The notes under the pieces were generated by a model, which was not told where the DNA came from, ran no database searches, and saw nothing but the letters and a program-made list of their open reading frames with translations. Positions 37,990-48,403 of a stretch of DNA of 64,000 nt are shown here, one piece after another (position 1 is the stretch's first letter; every line of letters starts with the position of its first letter). Both the position numbers and the translations under genes were made by a program. This stretch comes from Bacteroidota bacterium (GTDB lineage: Bacteria > Chlamydiota > Chlamydiia > Chlamydiales > FEN-1388): NCBI GenBank assembly GCA_013285825.1, contig JABDGV010000002.1, positions 132,245 through 196,244 on the forward strand, read 5' to 3'.

Positions 37990-38841
37990 ATGTTTACAGA
38001 ACGACTTCCTTCTACTGAACCTATATTATATATTGAAGTACCCAAGCCGTCTGAGGGTATAGTTAGAATTGAAGTGCTGCAACCTTCGGTAACTGTCCAG
38101 AAAGTTCAAATTATTTTTACAGATACTCCAAAAGAAACGCCAAAGTTAACTGGTTTATTCAGCTGTCTTTGCATTACTCCTACTACCGTACAAGTCCCTA
38201 ATGAATTTACCGGAAAGGCTGTAGAAGTTATCAAGGCATGGCTTCAAGCAGAGCCAGGAACCACTTTTTCAGAGCATTCCCTAGCAGACTTTATTAAATT
38301 AGAGGGGCAAAAAGAGCGCTTTATAGGGTATGTGAATGCATTAGTAGATAAAATGAATACGTTCTTTATAGACTGTTTTAAAGAGAAAATCAAACTCACA
38401 AGAAAAATTCTTGAGGGTTCAGTTTCAGCTAGAAATCTGGATATTGAGCTCTCTCAGTTCGTGATTTTTGGAACCATGAATAACGCTTTATTTGTTCCCT
38501 CTGAAGATAATCTACAGTTTTTGATAAGGTTCTTAAAACGCTGCTGTAGGGCACTTAACGATGCGGTCCAGAAGGGAGAGTATGTTCCTACAATATTACA
38601 GGACAGTCTCTGCAAAACTCTAGGTAACCTTTTGGTGCTTAATAGGGGAACTGAGGTAGATTATAGCCACCTCACTTGTATATGGACTCTTATTAAGCCT
38701 GAAATGCTAGAGACTATATCGAAAAAGTTTGGGTTGCAACCAAAGTTAGAAGTACAACAGTTAGAAGTGCAGCAGTTAGAAGTTCAGCTGTTAGAAGTAC
38801 AGCCCCAACCTATTGTAGAAGAAATAGTACTCTTGAAATGA
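37990..38841 (+). CDS. hypothetical protein, paralog A1 (283 aa)
   Basis: Clear paralogy with the next gene: VQKVQIIFTDTPKE...VQVPNEFTGKAVEVIKAWLQAEPG...FIKLEGQKERF... versus EKVQITFTSTPKE...IQVPKEFTGETAEFIKKWLNAEPG...FLKLEGQKERY.... The C-terminus carries an (LEVQQ)n repeat. Confidence 0.75.
   Translation: MFTERLPSTEPILYIEVPKPSEGIVRIEVLQPSVTVQKVQIIFTDTPKETPKLTGLFSCLCITPTTVQVPNEFTGKAVEVIKAWLQAEPGTTFSEHSLADFIKLEGQKERFIGYVNALVDKMNTFFIDCFKEKIKLTRKILEGSVSARNLDIELSQFVIFGTMNNALFVPSEDNLQFLIRFLKRCCRALNDAVQKGEYVPTILQDSLCKTLGNLLVLNRGTEVDYSHLTCIWTLIKPEMLETISKKFGLQPKLEVQQLEVQQLEVQLLEVQPQPIVEEIVLLK
38746..38805 (+). repeat. 4 x 15-bp in-frame tandem repeat (ttagaagtNcagNNN) encoding LEVQQ-LEVQQ-LEVQL-LEVQP
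   Basis: Units at 38746, 38761, 38776 and 38791, each with 1-3 mismatches. Confidence 0.9.
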
Positions 38842-38889
38842 GCATAGAGCACCAAGAGCTGTGTAAAAGTCAAAATAGTGGGGACTTTT

Positions 38890-39774
38890 ATGACGACAGA
38901 GTTGAAACAGGCGATTGAGATAATTAAAGTTCAGGATTTATCTTCATCTTCCTCAGAAGATGAAGAGGAGAAAGGCAACAAATTTACCTCATTCGGTATA
39001 AATAATCTTAAATTATCTGAAAAGGTACAAATCACTTTTACAAGTACTCCTAAAGAGTCGAAGTCGACAAGCGGCACCCTCTGTTGCTTCAGCAATTCAT
39101 CTTCTATACAAGTGCCCAAAGAATTTACTGGAGAGACGGCAGAATTTATAAAAAAATGGCTTAATGCAGAGCCGGGAGAAATTTCCCTTCCAGATACATT
39201 GGCGGAATTTCTCAAACTAGAAGGACAAAAGGAACGCTATAAAAAGTATATGCACGCCTTTGTTTTAGAGCTGAATACCTTTTTGTCTGCCTGTATCAAT
39301 AGGAAGATTCCTTGCCCTGAGAACCTTTTACAAGGTGAGGTTTCAGCAAAAGATCTCGATAAGGTGTTTACTCGCCTTATCATTCATGGGACTTTTGATA
39401 AGGCGTACTTTGAGGTTAAAAAAGATAATTTACCCTTTTTAGCCGCCTTCTTAAAGCGCTATTGCAATCAACTCATAGTCGGCAAAATCGGCAAAGAATT
39501 TCAAGAAACTCTGAGCAAAACTCTTAATTTTCTTTCTCAATTAATGAATGTAAAATACGAAACAATTCCAACTCGAGCTCCTATGGTGTGCGCTCTTGTC
39601 ACCATAAAAAAGAGTGAATTGGATTCAGATGCGATTTTGGAGAGGAAAGAATCAAAGAAAATAAACACCACACCGACTAATTTAAGTACGACCACCACAC
39701 CCAATCTAGAAACAATCCAAAAAAAAATATATTATGATCTTTCAAAGCTAGATCAGCGTCAGGGAGATGAATGA
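38890..39774 (+). CDS. hypothetical protein, paralog A2 (294 aa from ATG 38890; track start GTG 38878)
   Basis: Paralog of A1. The 11-mer AAAAGTCAAAA lies 13-14 nt upstream of both ATGs (37966-37976 and 38865-38875), which supports ATG 38890. The stop overlaps the next gene's start (ATGA at 39771-39774). Confidence 0.75.
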   Translation: MTTELKQAIEIIKVQDLSSSSSEDEEEKGNKFTSFGINNLKLSEKVQITFTSTPKESKSTSGTLCCFSNSSSIQVPKEFTGETAEFIKKWLNAEPGEISLPDTLAEFLKLEGQKERYKKYMHAFVLELNTFLSACINRKIPCPENLLQGEVSAKDLDKVFTRLIIHGTFDKAYFEVKKDNLPFLAAFLKRYCNQLIVGKIGKEFQETLSKTLNFLSQLMNVKYETIPTRAPMVCALVTIKKSELDSDAILERKESKKINTTPTNLSTTTTPNLETIQKKIYYDLSKLDQRQGDE

Positions 39775-42323
39775 CCCACTTTATCGGCATCGATTTAGGC
39801 ACTACCAATTGTGCGGTTGCCTTTGCGCCCTTAAGCGGCCGTGTCGAACTCTTTGCGATTCCGCAGCTTGTCCTTGAAAATATTGTGCAAGCCTCCCCTT
39901 TGCTTCCATCGGCCTGTTTTTTATCTGGTTATGAGGGCCGCAAGCTCTTTTCTTGGGAAAATGAGCAGAGCCCCATTATCGGCTCTTTGGCGGTAACCTT
40001 AGGGGATAAGGTTCCAACAAAGCAAATTGTCTCTGCAAAAAGCTGGCTGAGTACAAATAGAGGTGTTCGAGGCGAAGAGCTTCTACCCATCGATGGAGAT
40101 GCCCTTCGATATTCGCCAAGGCAGGTATTAAGCTTTATTCTTCAGCATATCCGCTCTGCATGGAATGAATCGCATCCAGAATCAATTCTTGAAGAGCAAA
40201 ATGTGGTTGTGACTATTCCTGCTTCGTTTAATGAGCGGGCACGCGCTGAGGTTGCTCAAAGCATTGAAAAGGGCGGGATTTACAAGTTTACCCTTTTAGA
40301 AGAGCCCATTGCAGCCCTCTATGCTTGGATGGGGGTAAAGGAAAATGCAAAATCGATCAAGACAGGCGATTCCATACTCGTAGTCGATATAGGCGGAGGG
40401 ACGACCGATTTTGCCCTCATCCATGTAGACGACGATCACCTTAATCGTGTCGCTGTCGGCAAGCACCTGATATTGGGCGGAGATAATATCGATGCCTTTG
40501 TCTCCAATCAGATCGGATATAAGGGGCCTTTTGGCGCCTCTTCATGTAAGCAGTTAAAAATCCAAGCTTTTCAAAACGATGCCCCATCAACATTGTCGGC
40601 AACAATTCAAAAGCGCGGCGCCTCGGTTATTGCTCAAGGTCAAGTCTTCCAAATTAAAAAAGAGGCTCTTCGAGATGATATCCTGGATGGATTTTTCCCG
40701 AAAGTTTCCTTCGATGAAGAGATAATAAAAAATCAGGCGATTGCCTCTTTTGGACTGCCCTATGAGCGGGACTGCAGGATTACTGCCCATTTGGCCGCAT
40801 TCTTGCGCCAAGCAACAAAGAGTGAGGGAGCGAGATACCCAAACAAAGTGCTCTTTAATGGCGGCTCATTAAAGCCTAAAGAGTTTCGTAGTCGACTTCT
40901 AGAGCAGATTTCGGCTTGGTCTGGATCTGAGGTTTTAGAGCTTGAAGCTACAAGCCTTGATTTTGCAGTCGCATATGGTGCTGTCTATTCGCAGCTTTCA
41001 AGTTCAAGAAAAATTCATTTAGGGCTTGCAAAAACACTCTATATACAGCTTCAAGGGAATAAGTTATGCACCATTTTGCCCAGAGGATCGGAGGCGGGAG
41101 TTGAGCATGAGGTTAAAAAAGAGCTTTTGCTTCAGGTGAACCAGCCGGTCTCTTTTCCTCTCTATTCCTCGCAAGTTCGTCTGCACGATAAGGTTGGGGA
41201 GATTATCGAGCCAAATGAAGATGAGATATCGCAAGTATCAACCCTTGTTTCTGCTTTAAAGTATGGATCTCAAGCCAAATCGGTGCCCATTCATCTAAGA
41301 GCTATGCTGAGCCCAATCGGAACCGTAGAGGTTTCATTGAAAGGGCCAAAGGTATGGACGTTGGAATTTGAAACACATGACCACTCTAAGCAAGCTATAC
41401 GAAAAGATGAGCTGCTTTCAGAGGATGTTAAGCAATCAATTACACCCTTAATTGATAGACTCATTCATGAAAACTGTTCCCTATCCATTATTGAAGAAAA
41501 ACTGCAAAAGCCAAAGGAAGAGTGGACGAGCTCGCTCCTTCGTTTTATTGCAGATCTGCTTTTAAAAAATGACAAGCCGATTTCATGGCGGATCTGGCAG
41601 CTTTTAGGTTTTACCTTGAGGCCAGGAATAGGCGCTCCTGGAGATGAGTGGCGCTTAAAGCAACTCTGGAAGAAAGTACTGCTGCAAAAAAGTACAACGC
41701 CAGAGATACAGCTCCATATGCTGATTGCTCTTCGAAGAGTTGCAGCCGGATTAACCCTGGGCCAGCAGGCGCAGGTTTTATCTGGTCATATCTTGCCGCT
41801 CTTTATCAACCCTGGAGTTCTTGCAGATCCAAAAAAGGTTGGCAAGGCTCTTTATGAAGAAAAGATTCGGGCAGCATCTTCTTTTGAGCATCTTAATTTT
41901 GGGTTTAAAGAGACACTTTTTAAAGCTCTCTCTAAGAAATTACGTACAAATAACTATACAACTGTTGATTTTTGGGGCTGGGCAAGACTTCTTTCTCGAT
42001 TAAAACTCTATGCGCCGCTCAGTACAGCGCTTCCCTTGTCGATCGTTGAGTTTGATGCCGCTTTAGTGTTTCAATCTCTACCTGAGTCGTTTATAGATGC
42101 ACATTTAGATACTGCTGCTATGGCTCTTGCTCCCTGCGGAATTGCAAATCTTGACTTAAAGGTTGATTCTATTTTTCCAGAAAAATTGTCTACTATTCGT
42201 CAGCAAATCAATTACCGTATAGAATCAAATAAGAAAAAAGAAGTTCACTTTGAGCTTTTAGGTGATCTTCCTGTTCACGGTTTAAAAATTACTGGAGCGT
42301 TAATTGAAGACAGTTTGGGATAG
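39771..42323 (+). CDS. Hsp70-family ATPase (actin-like NBD) with about 450-aa non-canonical C-terminal domain
   Basis: NBD motifs: [15 protein letters not shown] (phosphate 1), VVVTIPASFNERAR, ILVVDIGGGTTDFALI (phosphate 2) and LGGDNID. The C-terminal half does not resemble the DnaK substrate-binding domain. AGGGAG upstream. ATGA coupling to A2. Confidence 0.8.
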   Translation: MTHFIGIDLGTTNCAVAFAPLSGRVELFAIPQLVLENIVQASPLLPSACFLSGYEGRKLFSWENEQSPIIGSLAVTLGDKVPTKQIVSAKSWLSTNRGVRGEELLPIDGDALRYSPRQVLSFILQHIRSAWNESHPESILEEQNVVVTIPASFNERARAEVAQSIEKGGIYKFTLLEEPIAALYAWMGVKENAKSIKTGDSILVVDIGGGTTDFALIHVDDDHLNRVAVGKHLILGGDNIDAFVSNQIGYKGPFGASSCKQLKIQAFQNDAPSTLSATIQKRGASVIAQGQVFQIKKEALRDDILDGFFPKVSFDEEIIKNQAIASFGLPYERDCRITAHLAAFLRQATKSEGARYPNKVLFNGGSLKPKEFRSRLLEQISAWSGSEVLELEATSLDFAVAYGAVYSQLSSSRKIHLGLAKTLYIQLQGNKLCTILPRGSEAGVEHEVKKELLLQVNQPVSFPLYSSQVRLHDKVGEIIEPNEDEISQVSTLVSALKYGSQAKSVPIHLRAMLSPIGTVEVSLKGPKVWTLEFETHDHSKQAIRKDELLSEDVKQSITPLIDRLIHENCSLSIIEEKLQKPKEEWTSSLLRFIADLLLKNDKPISWRIWQLLGFTLRPGIGAPGDEWRLKQLWKKVLLQKSTTPEIQLHMLIALRRVAAGLTLGQQAQVLSGHILPLFINPGVLADPKKVGKALYEEKIRAASSFEHLNFGFKETLFKALSKKLRTNNYTTVDFWGWARLLSRLKLYAPLSTALPLSIVEFDAALVFQSLPESFIDAHLDTAAMALAPCGIANLDLKVDSIFPEKLSTIRQQINYRIESNKKKEVHFELLGDLPVHGLKITGALIEDSLG

Positions 42324-45300
42324 CCTTATACCTCTTGCCAAGGAAGCGCATCTGCTCAAAAGCGTTTTGGCTCCTCGAGATATTGCCTATTCCGAACAGG
42401 TGTATCAGATCCTCTTTCCTCAATCGGAGTCCGAAGAGGGACGCCCTTGTGTTGTTCTCCAAGTCCAAAAAAATGTTGATGACGGTGAGAGCACATACCA
42501 ACCTTTTGATCTCTTTTGCAGCTCTTGCGACTCCTCGAGCCATGCTATCTGCATCCATCAAGCAGCAGCTGTCCTTTGGATGTATGATTTTGGACTTGCG
42601 CCGCCGCATATATTCTTCAACCATTCGCCTTGGCGCTATCTCTTTGAAAGCCTATGTGAAAGTTATGGGTATGATGGGTATGTTTTGAATCGCAAAGGTA
42701 AAGAAGTATCTATCCGTAAGGGAAAAAAAGAGCCCTTCATTACTCTTCAAGGAAGCGAGGAGTTTTTAACTCATATTCAGGAGATTTTTGAACGCCCTAT
42801 TGAGTCTGAGGAAAATTCGATCAAATTTTCTGCGCTTGATGATAATGAGATTGAGCGCTATCGAAAGGGAAGGCCTTCAAGAAAGCTGAAGTTTGAGCTC
42901 TCACGGCTATCCGATTTGGCGCAATATTTGGCGCTCATCGAACAGATGCAGGGGTTTAAATCTACCTTTTCTCCTTCGAGCTCTGGCGGTCAGATTAAGC
43001 TTAGCAAAAGCATCGCTATCGAGTACGTAAGCCCTACGAAGCGGGAGGCAGAAGCTCTTGGTTTATTGATGCAGGAGCATATCTACTCCTTTCACGGCTT
43101 TGATCAAAAAACAGATGGGGCAAAGTTTCAGGTAGGTGACAAGCGCGTACTTGTTAAAGATCCAAAACAGATAGCTCTTCTGCTTGACCTCACACGGCAC
43201 GCTCTTCCAAGCCGTGTAGAAAAGATGCAGGTTTCACCTCAATTGATACCGCTGCACGCATCTATCAAAATTAGCGCGGATGCGCTTGTTATAGACCCTT
43301 ATCGAAATTCTATCGGCGATCTTCAACAAAATACCTCTTGGTATGGTCGCTGGATCACATCTGAAATGTATGGACTGTTTCCAGTTGAGTATACTCCCTT
43401 TTATCCAAATAAATGCACAGTACCGCGTAAAGAGATATCATCCTTTGTCAGTCAGTATCCCCATTTTTTAAGCAGGCATCCTGGATTCAAGGTGCACCAT
43501 ACATCAAAAGAAGAGGCCGTATCCTACACTGTTGAGCCAAGCGGGGCGCTTCGATTTGTATCAAAAACTCGATTGCAGTCAAAAATTGATGTTCCCCATA
43601 TTGATTTTGGAGCCTACACATGGGTTAAGGGGGCGGGGTTTTATCCTAAAGAGGGGTTAAAAGGGCAAAGCGATCTTCAAACTGATTCCTCTATTCTTCC
43701 CTATCAGGTTGCAGACTATATCCGGAGTCATAAAAGCGCTCTTGAGCAGCTGCCAGGCTTTTTTACTGATGACTCGCCGCTTGTCAAATCGGGACTCAAA
43801 ATTTATCTAGATACACCTGATATTGTATCTATTGAGCCTTTAATCCTCTGGAAATCAGGCATTCATTCTGACGACGTACGCATTTACGATGAGTATGGCT
43901 ATCTCGATAAAACTGGCTTTTTCTTAATTCCGGATGGGCAAATGCTCTTTGCTCAAGAGCGAAATATTGAAGCTGCAAACCCTGAAGAGTGGGACCATTT
44001 TTTTGCATCTGGGTTGCATCAACTCAGCACCGAGGTTTTGTGCGAGATTGACCCGCAGCTATGTCCTCCAAAGTCCTTGACTCTGCTTGCAAGCGATATT
44101 GAAGAGAAGAATTTGAAAGAGAGAGGTTCGGCCGCTTTATGGCAGATGAACCTTTCCTGGGAAAGTGAGCTTGGACGAGTAAGCCTTGACGAAGTCGTTG
44201 AGGGGAAGGCAAAGGGCATTCGCTATTTGCCGACAGAAGCTGGCCTTTTGGATCTATCTCAAGATCGTTTTGCTTGGATAGAGTCTAAGAAAAAAATGAA
44301 GAAAAAGGAAAAGGTCCAGAAGGATCTTGCCCTGGAGTTATCCTCTCTTGATCTTATCCGCCTTCATGCTCACGACACCATTACTTTTGACTCGGATTCA
44401 TGCGCTCACGGCCCTGTCGAACTTATCGAGCGCCTTTTAGAGATGAAATCGCCAGAGCCGCCCGATAGGCATCTTTTAAACTGTCAATTACGCCCCTATC
44501 AAGAACACGGTCTTTATTGGCTCTGGTATCTCTATACAAGCAGGCTTTCCGGGCTTTTATGCGATGATATGGGTGTTGGTAAAACCCATCAGGCAATGGC
44601 TCTTTTAGCCTCTGTAAAGGCGCTTGCAGATAGGGATGGAAAAAAGATACGGTTCTTGATTATCTGCCCGACATCGCTTGTATGGCACTGGAAAGAAAAG
44701 CTTCATCAGTTTGTGCCAAGCCTTGATGTATGCGCCTATTTTGGAAGCACCCGTTCCGATAGCTCTTTAAAAGATGCCGATGTTTTGCTTACGACGTATG
44801 GAATTTGGCGAAACGAACGTAAAAATTTACAGAAGCTTGAATTTGATGTGGCCATCTTCGACGAGCTTCAGATTGCCAAAAACCACTCAAGCCTAATTTG
44901 GTCGGCTCTCTCTGATGTCAAATCGCGTATGCGGCTGGGGCTTACCGGAACGCCCATAGAAAACCAGCTGCGGGAACTCAAAGCGCTCTTTGACCTCATA
45001 TTGCCAGGATATATGCCTGAAGAGCATGCCTTCCGTGAGCTTTTTGCACGTCCCATTGAACGAGGATATTTAGAGGGTCGGAAGGAGCTTTTAAGCCGGT
45101 ATGTAAAGCCATTTATTTTACGTAGGCGCAAGCAAGATGTTCTTCAAGATCTGCCTCAGAAATCGGAAGAGATCTGCCATGCAGAGCTTATTGGCGATCA
45201 AAAAAGCCTCTACCGCTCAGTGGCCGCAACTCATAGCGCCTCTCTTTTAAGCGCCCTCAAAGACAATGCTACCCATGTGCCCTATATGCACATCTTTGCT

Positions 45301-45903
45301 CTATTATCGGCTCTAAAGCAGATATCCAACCATCCAGCTACCTATCTCAAAGATGTTATAAACTTTGAAAAATATGAGTCGGGGAAATGGAGTGTATTTG
45401 TTGAGCTCTTAGAAGAGGCTCAAGAGAGTGGTTTGAAGGTTGTTGTCTTTTCTCAATATCTTTCAATGCTCGATATCATGGCCAAATATCTCGATTCCAA
45501 AGGAATTGGCTATGCACAGGTTCGCGGACAAACAAAAAAGCGCGGTGCTGAGATTTCACGCTTTCAAACAGATCCAAGCTGCAAAGTCTTTTTAGGATCT
45601 TTGCAAGCAGCAGGACTTGGGATCGATCTTACAGCCGGCTCAATTGTTATCCACTACGACCGCTGGTGGAATGCTGCGCGGGAAAATCAGGCGACTGATC
45701 GAGTACACAGAATTGGCCAGGAGAGAGGTGTGCAGGTGTACAAGCTTGTCACTCTCAATAGCATTGAAGAGAGAATTGATTTAATGATTGAATCCAAAGC
45801 TTCTCTTTTAGAAGATGTGGTCAGCTGGGATGACCATCAGATCGTCAAAAAGCTCTCCCGAAACGAACTTATTGAGCTTTTAGAGGGGCTGCAGGAAAGG
45901 TAA
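42304..45903 (+). CDS. SNF2-family helicase with N-terminal SWIM zinc finger
   Basis: SWIM motif CSSC...CIH at nt 42517-42558. SNF2 motifs: LRPYQEHGLYWL, DDMGVGKT (I), FDELQIAKN (II), LTGTPIEN (III), helicase-C with QATDRVHRIGQ (VI). The TTG start at 42304 overlaps the Hsp70-like stop by 20 nt, so the start is uncertain. Confidence 0.9.
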   Translation: MKTVWDSLIPLAKEAHLLKSVLAPRDIAYSEQVYQILFPQSESEEGRPCVVLQVQKNVDDGESTYQPFDLFCSSCDSSSHAICIHQAAAVLWMYDFGLAPPHIFFNHSPWRYLFESLCESYGYDGYVLNRKGKEVSIRKGKKEPFITLQGSEEFLTHIQEIFERPIESEENSIKFSALDDNEIERYRKGRPSRKLKFELSRLSDLAQYLALIEQMQGFKSTFSPSSSGGQIKLSKSIAIEYVSPTKREAEALGLLMQEHIYSFHGFDQKTDGAKFQVGDKRVLVKDPKQIALLLDLTRHALPSRVEKMQVSPQLIPLHASIKISADALVIDPYRNSIGDLQQNTSWYGRWITSEMYGLFPVEYTPFYPNKCTVPRKEISSFVSQYPHFLSRHPGFKVHHTSKEEAVSYTVEPSGALRFVSKTRLQSKIDVPHIDFGAYTWVKGAGFYPKEGLKGQSDLQTDSSILPYQVADYIRSHKSALEQLPGFFTDDSPLVKSGLKIYLDTPDIVSIEPLILWKSGIHSDDVRIYDEYGYLDKTGFFLIPDGQMLFAQERNIEAANPEEWDHFFASGLHQLSTEVLCEIDPQLCPPKSLTLLASDIEEKNLKERGSAALWQMNLSWESELGRVSLDEVVEGKAKGIRYLPTEAGLLDLSQDRFAWIESKKKMKKKEKVQKDLALELSSLDLIRLHAHDTITFDSDSCAHGPVELIERLLEMKSPEPPDRHLLNCQLRPYQEHGLYWLWYLYTSRLSGLLCDDMGVGKTHQAMALLASVKALADRDGKKIRFLIICPTSLVWHWKEKLHQFVPSLDVCAYFGSTRSDSSLKDADVLLTTYGIWRNERKNLQKLEFDVAIFDELQIAKNHSSLIWSALSDVKSRMRLGLTGTPIENQLRELKALFDLILPGYMPEEHAFRELFARPIERGYLEGRKELLSRYVKPFILRRRKQDVLQDLPQKSEEICHAELIGDQKSLYRSVAATHSASLLSALKDNATHVPYMHIFALLSALKQISNHPATYLKDVINFEKYESGKWSVFVELLEEAQESGLKVVVFSQYLSMLDIMAKYLDSKGIGYAQVRGQTKKRGAEISRFQTDPSCKVFLGSLQAAGLGIDLTAGSIVIHYDRWWNAARENQATDRVHRIGQERGVQVYKLVTLNSIEERIDLMIESKASLLEDVVSWDDHQIVKKLSRNELIELLEGLQER

Positions 45904-45910
45904 GCGGGAG

Positions 45911-46312
45911 TTACTCTAAGTATCTTTCTATAATGAGCTCTTTTACCTTCTCTTCGAGCTGCTGAGAGAGCAATCTCAGCTGCATTGCATGTTCATTTGT
46001 TTCTGGATAACGGCTGGAAACAAGGAGCTTTTTGATTTCAGCGACATCCTTAATTTTTTTAATGAATTCGGATAATGCAACAGGATCTGAGCTTTTAGGA
46101 TCGAATATCTCCGTATAGTTGTTTTTAATGACTGTAACGGCATTGGTTAATTGGATCGCTTGAGCCTTCTTAAGCTGATCTTTGATTTTTCGAGTTGTAA
46201 AATCTTGGTATTGAGAAAGCTGTAGAGCTGACTTATGCAAATTTGAATAGTGTTGTGAAATTTCGAAAAACTTTTTGGTGCATGAAGGGCCTAATTGTAG
46301 AAAAAGTTTCAC
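45911..46312 (-). CDS. small hypothetical protein, paralog B1 (133 aa)
   Basis: Homologous to the two upstream genes: shared N-terminus (F.LG...F.EFS/ISQ...Y), a mid 'K..Y.EI.D' block and a C-terminal 'L...LEE.VK' block. It starts 1 nt after the stop of B2. Confidence 0.65.
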   Translation of the reverse strand: MKLFLQLGPSCTKKFFEISQHYSNLHKSALQLSQYQDFTTRKIKDQLKKAQAIQLTNAVTVIKNNYTEIFDPKSSDPVALSEFIKKIKDVAEIKKLLVSSRYPETNEHAMQLRLLSQQLEEKVKELIIERYLE

Positions 46313-46313
46313 T

Positions 46314-46748
46314 CTAAAGCTCCTCGTTATTTTTTAAATGGGTAATAAAGCAGCTATTCTGGAGAGTTTTTTTGACCTCCTCTTCAAGGTCTGTGAAAAG
46401 CCTTCTTTCCAGATTAATAAGCTTTCCAATACGGTTGGGATGCGGTTTTGTCTTAGGATAGCGATGTTTTTCAAACTCTCCTTGAATGAAGTTGAGGGAT
46501 TGTATTTTGACAGTAAAGGGTGATAACTGGACAGGATGCGTCTTTGCCGTATCGATGATCTCTTCGAATTTATATCTAAAAAGGTGGGAAGCCTTATTTA
46601 ATGCCACAGATTGAGCATCAATATATGATTTTCTGATCGGGTCAATTTCAGGGGTATTTTGAACAAGGTATTGTATTTCACGGTAGTTCTTTGCTATTTG
46701 AGAAAATTCCTTGAAGACTTGACTGCCTAATCGAAAATAGAGGCTCAT
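46314..46748 (-). CDS. small hypothetical protein, paralog B2 (144 aa)
   Basis: See B1. AAGGA upstream of the ATG. Confidence 0.65.
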   Translation of the reverse strand: MSLYFRLGSQVFKEFSQIAKNYREIQYLVQNTPEIDPIRKSYIDAQSVALNKASHLFRYKFEEIIDTAKTHPVQLSPFTVKIQSLNFIQGEFEKHRYPKTKPHPNRIGKLINLERRLFTDLEEEVKKTLQNSCFITHLKNNEEL

Positions 46749-46763
46749 GGGCTTTTCCTTATG

Positions 46764-47186
46764 TTATTCATCTAAAAAGTCGTCATAGGTAATTAAGCGG
46801 CTATCCTCAATGAGCTGCTCTTTGATCATTTTTTCTAATTGAAGATAGAGAACTTCTTTTTGATTAATGAGCTTTTTATGCTCTTTTGTGTAGGAAATAT
46901 TCTTCATAATAAGGTGGTTTTGAATTGTATCGATTTGATTTATGGTATTGGTAAATTTCGATACCTCTAAGGAATCTGAGCCTTCAATATCGATAATCTC
47001 TTTATATTCTTGTTTGAAGAGCAGGACCGACTTTGTGAGTGCAAGAGTTTGTCCCATCTCAAACTTTTTTTTGATGAGAACATTTAAACGAAATGCATAG
47101 GCGCGAGTTTTCATTGCATGGTAATCTGTTGCAAATCCAGAAAATTCTGCAAAGGCATCAGTCCATCGCCGAAATTGAATTTTCAT
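46764..47186 (-). CDS. small hypothetical protein, paralog B3 (140 aa from ATG 47186; track start TTG 47225)
   Basis: See B1. The ATG at 47186 is preceded by GAGG (agaggtattaATG), and MKIQFRRWTDAFAEFSGFATDY aligns with the N-termini of B1 and B2. Confidence 0.65.
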   Translation of the reverse strand: MKIQFRRWTDAFAEFSGFATDYHAMKTRAYAFRLNVLIKKKFEMGQTLALTKSVLLFKQEYKEIIDIEGSDSLEVSKFTNTINQIDTIQNHLIMKNISYTKEHKKLINQKEVLYLQLEKMIKEQLIEDSRLITYDDFLDE

Positions 47187-47302
47187 TAATACCTCTGCAT
47201 GCGTTATAACGAAGAAGCTTAGCAATGATGTTGATTTTTCATCAATTTAAATTGAATTATTTCCTTAACTTTGATATAGTTTTTTAAAAAATATGTATTA
47301 AC

Positions 47303-48403
47303 ATGACTTTATTACGCAGAGTACTTAACGATCCCACTTTGAAAGGAGAATCACTTCTTTCTCCCATCAACTATTTTAGTAACAAAATTCGATCATCGAA
47401 GAGTGATGTTTCTGAAGCATTTGATGAATGCGCCACCTATCGAAAATATAAAAATTTGATCCCTGCGCATGGCCAAAAAACTGTCATGAAGGCTCAGGAT
47501 TTAGCATGCTTGAGCATTAACAAAGATGGAACGTCGGATAGTCTGTTCTTTAAACATGACACCTTTGAAGTGACAGCTCTTCCAGGCGGAAAATCCTATG
47601 AAGTGATTCGAAGGCGAGATCCCGCGTTCCAGAACCATTCGTATCGCCGGATTTTGTTTAATGAAACAGTTTCAAGAATTATAAAGTCCATTGGATGGAT
47701 TGCTCTTGCCATTTTAGTCATACCCTTTCTTCTTCCCGTTGGAGCGATAGCTCTTTGTCAAAAAGCCGCCGATCTTCGGACCAGACGGTTACATTGTCAG
47801 CGGCCGCTTATTGTTGAAGAGCTTCCCCTAAATAAGAAAGAGTACCAACAGGTAGCTGATATTGCTCATCTTTGGGAGCGTGAAGGAGGTGCAAGGAAGA
47901 CTCAAATAGCGGATAAAACTGAAAAGGAAGTCTTTGCCTCGACCGAATCTGTCTGCAGGGCTCTTGCTTCGTGTCTGGAAAACTCTAAAGAATCAAAACC
48001 CTATTTTGACTCAATGTATATCTGTTCGGATGTTGAACATAAGAGACCTCAAGCAATTGCTTTGACTAAAACTACAGCGATTTGGAAAAGAAGCAGAAAA
48101 AAATTAGGCAACTATCTCAAACTCTCCTATCTTGCTTCCAACCCAGATAATATACGTTCTAAACTCAACGAACATATTTATACTCGAGTTGAGGGCGCCG
48201 GTAAAAAAACGCTTTTCCACCTGCTTAAAATAGCTAAAGATAAGAGTCTCAAGGGTGTCTATCTCGAAGCTGTTGAGAGCGCGGTTCCCTTCTATAAACG
48301 ATTTGGTTTTAAGCCTCTTAATCCTAAAGTGGTGAAGATGTCTGAGAAAAATCTTCAGCCTATGCATATCACTCAAGATGCGATTCGTCAGCTGGCGCTT
48401 TAA
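47303..48403 (+). CDS. membrane-anchored protein with C-terminal GNAT N-acetyltransferase domain
   Basis: Hydrophobic segment IGWIALAILVIPFLLPVGAIALC at about residues 130-155. The C-terminal RVEGAGKKTLFHLLKIAKDKSLKGVYLEAVESAVPFYKRFGFKP matches GNAT motif A (R/Q-x-x-G-x-G/A) plus the 'FY.+.GF' end. Confidence 0.65.
   Translation: MTLLRRVLNDPTLKGESLLSPINYFSNKIRSSKSDVSEAFDECATYRKYKNLIPAHGQKTVMKAQDLACLSINKDGTSDSLFFKHDTFEVTALPGGKSYEVIRRRDPAFQNHSYRRILFNETVSRIIKSIGWIALAILVIPFLLPVGAIALCQKAADLRTRRLHCQRPLIVEELPLNKKEYQQVADIAHLWEREGGARKTQIADKTEKEVFASTESVCRALASCLENSKESKPYFDSMYICSDVEHKRPQAIALTKTTAIWKRSRKKLGNYLKLSYLASNPDNIRSKLNEHIYTRVEGAGKKTLFHLLKIAKDKSLKGVYLEAVESAVPFYKRFGFKPLNPKVVKMSEKNLQPMHITQDAIRQLAL

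Follow-up and report, generated by a model that had tools for sequence, protein, structure and literature searches.

A DUF3731-type long Hsp70 beside a chlamydial SNF2-family ATPase: probably a detached triad gene in an inherited gene order

Does a string of genes that joins a long Hsp70-like ATPase to an SNF2-family helicase encode one machine, or does it bring together proteins that work apart? The question is raised by a stretch of 64,000 nucleotides (nt), here called the window, from contig JABDGV010000002.1 of assembly GCA_013285825.1, a metagenome-assembled genome (MAG) of the class Chlamydiia (1.68 Mb, 45 contigs, about 75% complete) whose nearest named relatives are 'Parachlamydiaceae' and 'Chlamydiales bacterium' MAGs. 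Behind ald, the alanine dehydrogenase gene, four genes on the forward strand encode two orphan paralogs (A1 and A2), a long Hsp70-like protein (Hsp70L) and an SNF2-family ATPase (SNF2). An initial annotation of the window had read these genes as one Hsp70-SNF2 machine with A1 and A2 as adaptors. All four were recovered as open reading frames (ORFs) on that strand, but the phyletic pattern ties Hsp70L to DUF2760 and a short Hsp70 and not to SNF2. With a probability of about 0.7, we read the locus as one co-directional, probably co-transcribed string of three functionally separate parts: an orphan pair, a detached gene of the DUF2760/short Hsp70/long Hsp70 triad, and a chlamydial SNF2.

Hsp70L is a DUF3731-type long Hsp70. 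The Pfam family PF12531 matched residues 608-760 with 96.2 bits (cut-off 25), and a whole-genome profile search scored the domain at 99 bits. Together with a survey of loci, this domain places the protein in the long 'Hsp70 family protein' class of Hsp70/DUF2760 clusters, as the initial annotation had suggested. A scan of prokaryotes with one genome per species returned at least 529 loci with Hsp70L relatives in many phyla, and the best 80, of which 77 are non-chlamydial, were surveyed. DUF2760 and a short Hsp70 lay beside the long gene in 45 of these loci, almost always directly upstream, and one of the two was present in 13 more. The module DUF2760 - short Hsp70 - Hsp70/DUF3731 (PF10816, PF00012, PF12531) occurs in Proteobacteria, Acidobacteriota, Myxococcota, Planctomycetota, Lentisphaerota and other phyla; Hsp70L shares with its long member the ATPase domain, the beta-sandwich, the DUF3731 solenoid and the C-terminal FGxxLPxGLxL, at 30-36% identity. 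An SNF2 orthologue was found within ±10 kb of Hsp70L in none of the 77 non-chlamydial loci, where the only helicase match was a weak, opposite-strand helicase-C in locus L079.

The three families also co-occur within Chlamydiia. In an evenly drawn sample of 300 genomes, DUF3731 was present in 62 and DUF2760 in 60, all inside the 62, and 238 had neither (Fisher p 2e-61, kinship among genomes ignored). In every one of the 60 genomes with both, the two lie on separate contigs or at least 81 kb apart; a triad contiguous in one operon, as seen in other phyla, was found in none of them. The genome studied here carries both partner genes, with DUF2760 (151 aa, E 4e-41) running by an ATGA-type overlap into a 562-aa Hsp70 on another contig (G000:C1:140704-142763; L020), and both genomes of the genus keep this pair intact. 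Among 40 relatives, the long Hsp70 was confined to the same genus and six other families, and exactly the genomes that have it also carry a paralog of about 560-670 aa elsewhere, each with DUF2760 directly upstream. Chlamydial Hsp70L sequences are monophyletic (99/99), with a Verrucomicrobiota/Lentisphaerota clade next to them, consistent with a single ancient origin. This single clade, taken with the co-occurrence pattern, indicates a triad of long standing in the lineage that was divided early and repeatedly lost as a unit. It is missing from about 240 of the 300 genomes, including all sampled genomes of family f22/genus g33, which measure ~1.0-1.2 Mb, and the genus studied here is the sole one in family f1 that keeps the long Hsp70 and the triad. 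Repeated joint loss suggests an accessory unit of larger-genome lineages, and since every triad-bearing Chlamydiia genome has it in two loci, its proteins need no co-translation. Chlamydiia differ from other phyla in a class-wide split, with DUF2760 and the short Hsp70 at one locus and Hsp70L alone between ald and SNF2; no other copy is as divergent as that of this genus.

We found no paper on DUF2760, DUF3731 (PF12531, PF10816) or 'DNA-K related protein', and no published function. The stk locus of Myxococcus, which encodes the Hsp70 StkA, was considered as a counterpart of the triad and rejected, because StkB has 141 aa and is SCP2-like, and StkC has 89 aa (PMC4319316). A survey of Hsp70 proteins in M. 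xanthus (PMC8265645) contains nothing on DUF3731.

The Hsp70 part of the long protein is well preserved. Pfam HSP70 (E 4.7e-18) and a profile of the DnaK nucleotide-binding domain (NBD) from the PDB (E 2e-24) both place Hsp70L in the superfamily. Both phosphate loops are intact, as had been claimed (DLGTTN, residues 8-13; DIGGGTTD, residues 206-213), and in 50 homologues these loops and the equivalents of K90 and E177/E178 are invariant or nearly so. Canonical DnaK or HscA it is not, with 57.9 bits for TIGR02350 (cut-off 822) and 59.9 for HscA (cut-off 708). An AlphaFold2 model built on 50 homologues (predicted local distance difference test, pLDDT, 85.7, mostly above 85 in the NBD; predicted template modelling score, pTM, 0.72) shows an actin-fold ATPase followed by an 8-stranded beta-sandwich, a disordered linker, an all-helical domain and a short C-terminal strand. 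Foldseek superposed this model on the lid-truncated, domain-docked DnaK structure 7kru over about 590 columns (template modelling score, TM, 0.67 on the target; root-mean-square deviation 5.0 Å). The short Hsp70 paralog aligns with residues 1-536, and the beta-sandwich is thus common to both proteins. Residues ~420-535 are therefore predicted to form a sandwich like the beta subdomain of the DnaK substrate-binding domain (SBD-beta). The initial annotation had the DnaK substrate-binding domain replaced by an unrelated region; because an SBD-beta-like domain is kept in the model, the replacement appears to be restricted to the helical lid, in whose place DUF3731 stands.

Modelled alone, the DUF3731 domain gave an all-alpha solenoid (pLDDT 85.5, pTM 0.84). 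Foldseek detected no significant solved relative, the best being armadillo-repeat/importin-alpha proteins (E 0.027, TM ~0.4); the domain is thus predicted to be armadillo/HEAT-like, a term that describes fold class and not homology. It carries the family signature W..W.L.GF.LRPG.G.P.D..R at residues 606-633. Long Hsp70s also end in a motif, FG[ED]xLPxGLxL, that is kept across phyla (homologues L028-L107) and reads LGDLPVHGLKI in the window, where the model places a short strand at residues 838-840. This motif resembles a hydrophobic peptide of the type bound by Hsp70 as client, and may serve for docking, either within the protein or to a partner.

Compared with the DnaK-DnaJ-GrpE system and the atypical E. 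coli HscC, Hsp70L has the same actin-fold ATPase with all catalytic loops, and its predicted sandwich is docked as in ATP-state DnaK (7kru, 4b9q). It differs in the armadillo-like solenoid that replaces the helical lid, in its NCBIfam DnaK score (58 bits against 648 and 822) and in having no J-protein or GrpE gene beside it, while the genome has its own canonical dnaK (window ~17.9-19.9 kb). Hsp70L would most likely work with the distant DUF2760 and short Hsp70 as an Hsp70-type ATP-driven clamp, in which the solenoid would serve as a client or partner platform and the C-terminal hydrophobic peptide might dock into a groove of the beta-sandwich. The model revises the picture of long Hsp70s and offers concrete constructs for biochemistry on a module that has no published function.

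If the triad accounts for Hsp70L, what does its adjacency to SNF2 mean? The position of SNF2 was scored in 62 genomes with Hsp70L, and that of ald in the 50 of them that have ald. SNF2 lies directly 3' of Hsp70L on the same strand in 28 of the 62, 3' with one or more genes between in 6, adjacent but inverted in 2, on the same contig at a distance of 49-358 kb in 8, and on a different contig in 16 (including every member of family f21), whereas 2 have no SNF2 orthologue. The adjacency recurs in at least 12 chlamydial families, often with overlapping genes or at most 3 nt between them, so the worry that it might be conserved nowhere is removed. As a control for synteny, we used ald, which is directly 5' of Hsp70L in 45 of the 50 genomes. 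Because ald neighbors Hsp70L more faithfully than SNF2 does, the conservation of adjacency here points to synteny and not to function. Among 15 genomes without Hsp70L, SNF2 stood behind ald on the same strand in 9, with a gap of -1 to 110 nt in 6, and SMC often preceded ald. The ancestral string is SMC-ald-Hsp70L-SNF2; Hsp70L is able to drop out of it, and breaks fall between Hsp70L and SNF2. The adjacency would have come from the chlamydial ancestor and been kept by gene-order inertia and operon packing rather than by mutual need. Most likely, then, the proposed Hsp70-SNF2 machine is a chance product of inherited gene order, and adjacency by itself gives no reason to pursue it as a new system.

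Some rearrangements around these genes were recorded. Hsp70L and SNF2 are adjacent and convergent in genomes G296 and G133, which indicates inversion breakpoints exactly at their junction. In one family (G033; L014:10493-12304), an opposite-strand gene for a 603-aa tetratricopeptide-repeat protein lies between them. In G003, a genome of the same family as ours but without Hsp70L, the canonical dnaK (a 643-aa ORF) ends 3 nt before the SNF2 start (L119:8518-10450), and a second kind of Hsp70 is thus found immediately 5' of the SNF2 helicase. In family f1, dnaK is usually separated from SNF2, which lies on the same strand, by 2.5-24 kb; the arrangement in G003 probably arose by deletion of the genes between.

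At the nucleotide level, the junctions of the string agree with the initial annotation. A2 and Hsp70L meet in the sequence GGA GAT GAA TGA, which places the Hsp70L ATG at 39771, so the ATGA overlap (39771-39774) is real, and a Shine-Dalgarno-like AGGGAG lies directly 5' of this start. The SNF2 start, TTG 42304, is the first codon behind an in-frame TAA and overlaps the Hsp70L stop by 20 nt; a plausible Shine-Dalgarno sequence, GGAG, about 8 nt 5' of it sits within the 3' end of Hsp70L. Only with this start is the N-terminal 'TVWD' kept, which the window protein has in common with its same-genus orthologue. Such very tight Hsp70L-SNF2 junctions make co-transcription of the two genes likely and suggest that their translation is perhaps coupled; the whole string from A1 to SNF2 is probably co-transcribed. 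Scans for consensus promoters and terminators stayed at background level (16 versus 17.9 and 13 versus 11.5 in shuffled sequence).

The same junctions bear on the possibility of a pairing specific to chlamydiae, in which Hsp70L, after the split of the triad, was kept by and translationally coupled to SNF2 because SNF2 is its target. The task of Hsp70L could be, for instance, folding, loading or releasing the long N-terminal part of this ATPase, or tying the triad to nucleoid remodeling in the developmental cycle. Such a pairing would account for the 28 co-directional adjacencies in at least 12 families, for the 6 further genomes with an inserted gene, for the ribosome-binding site inside Hsp70L and for the tightness of the junctions across families, and the predicted armadillo-like solenoid would be a generic protein-binding platform. 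However, about 240 genomes without Hsp70L keep an SNF2 that aligns nearly full length, including the N-terminal region. The entire family f21 and two genera of f24 hold both genes unlinked, ald is the more faithful neighbor, and no linkage exists in the 77 loci of other phyla. Of 41 relatives, 39 have an SNF2 orthologue, as do 54 of 55 further genomes with Hsp70L, and most SNF2-bearing Chlamydiia genomes are without Hsp70L; conversely, genome G024 (97% complete) encodes Hsp70L, with holA next downstream, but no SNF2 orthologue, its SNF2 matches being at paralog level only. We consider the pairing unlikely, and likewise its specific form, in which Hsp70L, detached from its partners in the common ancestor of Chlamydiia, is an assistant of an SNF2 DNA translocase or nucleoid remodeler whose N-terminal region is a client of the DUF3731 platform. 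If true, the partnership would be the first functional clue to the DUF2760/Hsp70 triad.

A separate-parts string is still our preferred reading, and several observations weigh against it. The partnership of Hsp70L with DUF2760 and the short Hsp70, the most likely one, has co-occurrence as its sole basis. The Hsp70L-SNF2 junctions measure -20, -8, 0, +2 and +3 nt in five genomes of different families, tighter than most ald-SNF2 junctions, and the breadth of the adjacency across families adds to this; there may be some selection for co-expression of Hsp70L and SNF2. Finally, that the triad is split everywhere in Chlamydiia while Hsp70L stays by SNF2 could itself reflect a new partnership.

SNF2 itself is a clear member of its family (PF00176 SNF2-rel_dom, 206.9 bits, E 4.7e-61; PF00271 Helicase_C, 64.8 bits), with intact motifs I, II, III and VI (DDMGVGKT, DELQ, GTPIEN and QATDRVHRIGQ). 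Among solved structures, the Sulfolobus Rad54-like core 1z63 matches it best (E 2e-84). The N-terminal region of about 700 aa is specific to the chlamydial family and carries a Cys3His element. The initial annotation had called the protein a SWIM-SNF2 helicase. The SNF2 motor bears this out, and orthologue L017, with the canonical FCSC...CxH, passes the Pfam SWIM cut-off (21.6 versus 19.6 bits); the window protein (CSSC...CIH), however, has no match to PF04434 even at E<=5, and orthologue L118 stays under the cut-off with 16.6 bits. The canonical form is found in other orthologues and CSSC...CxH in this genus. As far as the alignment of orthologues tells, the window element is a SWIM-derived variant. 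The protein shares its motor motifs with SNF2/Rad54-like ATPases (1z63, E. coli RapA, the NCBIfam SCO1167/SCO6262 helicases and the pilus-regulating Snf2 helicase), and the SWIM-type element is N-terminal in the chlamydial orthologue family. It differs in falling far under all NCBIfam equivalog cut-offs (385 versus 1200; 321 versus 1100), in the Chlamydiia-specific N-terminal region and, in this genus, in having CxxC in place of the SWIM CxC. A literature search on chlamydial SNF2 (CT555/CT708) gave nothing usable. We infer that SNF2 would be a universal chlamydial SWIM-type DNA translocase acting independently of Hsp70L.

SNF2 helicases also occur in anti-phage systems (Zorya ZorD, Dpd DpdE, DISARM DrmD), and the string could be thought of as a module against phages or mobile elements with Hsp70L as an accessory. 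The motor core indeed matched PADLOC profiles for DpdE (E 3e-114) and ZorD (E 1e-96). However, these matches span only the generic helicase core (residues ~670-1190), the NCBIfam scores lie below the family cut-offs (ZorD 209 versus 1500; DrmD 47 versus 950 and 45 versus 610; DpdE 39 versus 500), Zorya, Dpd and DISARM partner genes were not found in the neighborhood, and neither Hsp70L nor DUF2760 has a meaningful PADLOC match. Moreover, SNF2 belongs to the syntenic core of Chlamydiia, being near-universal there, and does not show the patchy distribution of island genes. The failed cut-offs and the core-gene distribution largely refute a defense role, which we regard as very improbable.

The orphan pair forms the third part of the string. 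A1 and A2 are paralogs (44% identity across 178 aa, E 8e-45) and have no match in the Pfam, NCBIfam or PADLOC libraries, so that their description as orphan paralogs holds. A same-genus genome has one A homologue, a single copy in the same position (E 0.009) with the motifs FTG...WL and LK..C in common. It lies 43 nt 5' of the earliest possible Hsp70L start and 58 nt 5' of the start that matches the N-terminus in the window. Beyond this gene, no convincing homologue was found among relatives, the sole other match to A2 being marginal (G006, E 5.5e-4, 18.8 bits, within a 675-aa ORF); in other families, ald abuts Hsp70L with no A gene between. Since A1 and A2 are restricted to this genus, a role as conserved adaptors is excluded. 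They evolve fast and form a lineage-specific insertion between ald and Hsp70L, tandem-duplicated in this genome. A genus-specific orphan gene would have been inserted between ald and the next gene and then recently duplicated. The leader AAAAGTCAAAA(A/T)AG precedes both A1 (37958-37989) and A2 (38860-38889), which indicates that the duplication took in the upstream leader. This shared leader favors ATG 38890, which is more probably the true A2 start than GTG 38878. At the 3' end of A1, a 15-bp repeat present four times (38744-38803) encodes LEVQQ-type pentapeptides at the C-terminus, a tract that could grow or shrink in frame.

These orphans invite one more interpretation, neofunctionalization within the genus, by which a diverged Hsp70L together with A1/A2 forms a lineage-specific, possibly effector-related A2-Hsp70L system apart from the triad. 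The branch leading to Hsp70L of this genus is very long (stem 1.72 substitutions per site), the DUF3731 scores of this Hsp70L are the lowest in the class (99-110 bits versus 131-270 bits in other Chlamydiia), and the window protein is the shortest of its family, with a poorly aligned C-terminal third. The long branch and the weakened DUF3731 match leave room for lineage-specific change in this genus, which is also the only one of family f1 to keep Hsp70L and the only one with A genes, overlapping Hsp70L as ATGA in the window. However, both genomes of the genus still carry an intact pair of DUF2760 and short Hsp70, Hsp70L retains its catalytic and signature residues, and the relative has but one barely recognizable A gene, which is separated from Hsp70L. 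We therefore find this interpretation improbable.

The boundaries of the string and the features within it are listed in Table 1. Upstream, the ald terminator proposed earlier is upheld in its hairpin, the intergenic RNA 37891-37989 folding with -30.9 kcal/mol (z = -5.5), but the U-tract behind it is weak (UUAUUGAAUUU). Downstream, the string ends as described before, 7 nt separating the SNF2 stop from the end of the convergent gene at 45911.

Table 1. Positions of the gene string, its boundaries and its protein domains in the window
Feature	Position	Strand	Basis and remarks
ald (alanine dehydrogenase)	36775..37890	+	Pfam AlaDh_PNT_C/N, E 2e-89; 5' neighbor of Hsp70L (of SNF2 where no Hsp70L)
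Stem-loop 3' of ald	37907..37933	+	Fold computation; 11-bp stem, 5-nt loop; terminator-like
A1	37990-38841	+	ORF, 283 aa; genus-specific orphan
A2	38878-39774	+	ORF, 298 aa; A1 paralog; stop overlaps Hsp70L start as ATGA
Hsp70L, whole gene	39771-42323	+	ORF, 850 aa
Hsp70L nucleotide-binding domain, residues 1-410	39771..41000	+	Pfam HSP70, invariant columns, PDB profile matches, AlphaFold
Hsp70L beta-sandwich, predicted SBD-beta-like, residues ~420-535	41028..41375	+	AlphaFold, Foldseek, paralog alignment
Hsp70L DUF3731 domain, residues ~551-820	41421..42230	+	Pfam PF12531, domain model
Hsp70L extreme C-terminal motif, residues 830-840	42258..42290	+	Alignments, ORF ends
SNF2-family ATPase, whole gene	42304-45903	+	ORF, 1199 aa; stop 45901-45903
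SWIM-derived Cys3His motif of SNF2, residues 72-85	42517-42558	+	CxxC...CxH (CSSCDSSSHAICIH)
SNF2 motor core, residues 722-1194	44467-45885	+	Pfam
Convergent small orphan, first of three tandem paralogs	45911..46312	-	ORF list; 3' boundary of gene string

The convergent gene opens a run of three tandem paralogous orphans on the reverse strand (45911-47225; 133, 144 and 153 aa), none with a Pfam match. Together with a GNAT-tail protein (47303-48403) and an 813-aa orphan, these genes make up a lineage-specific block.

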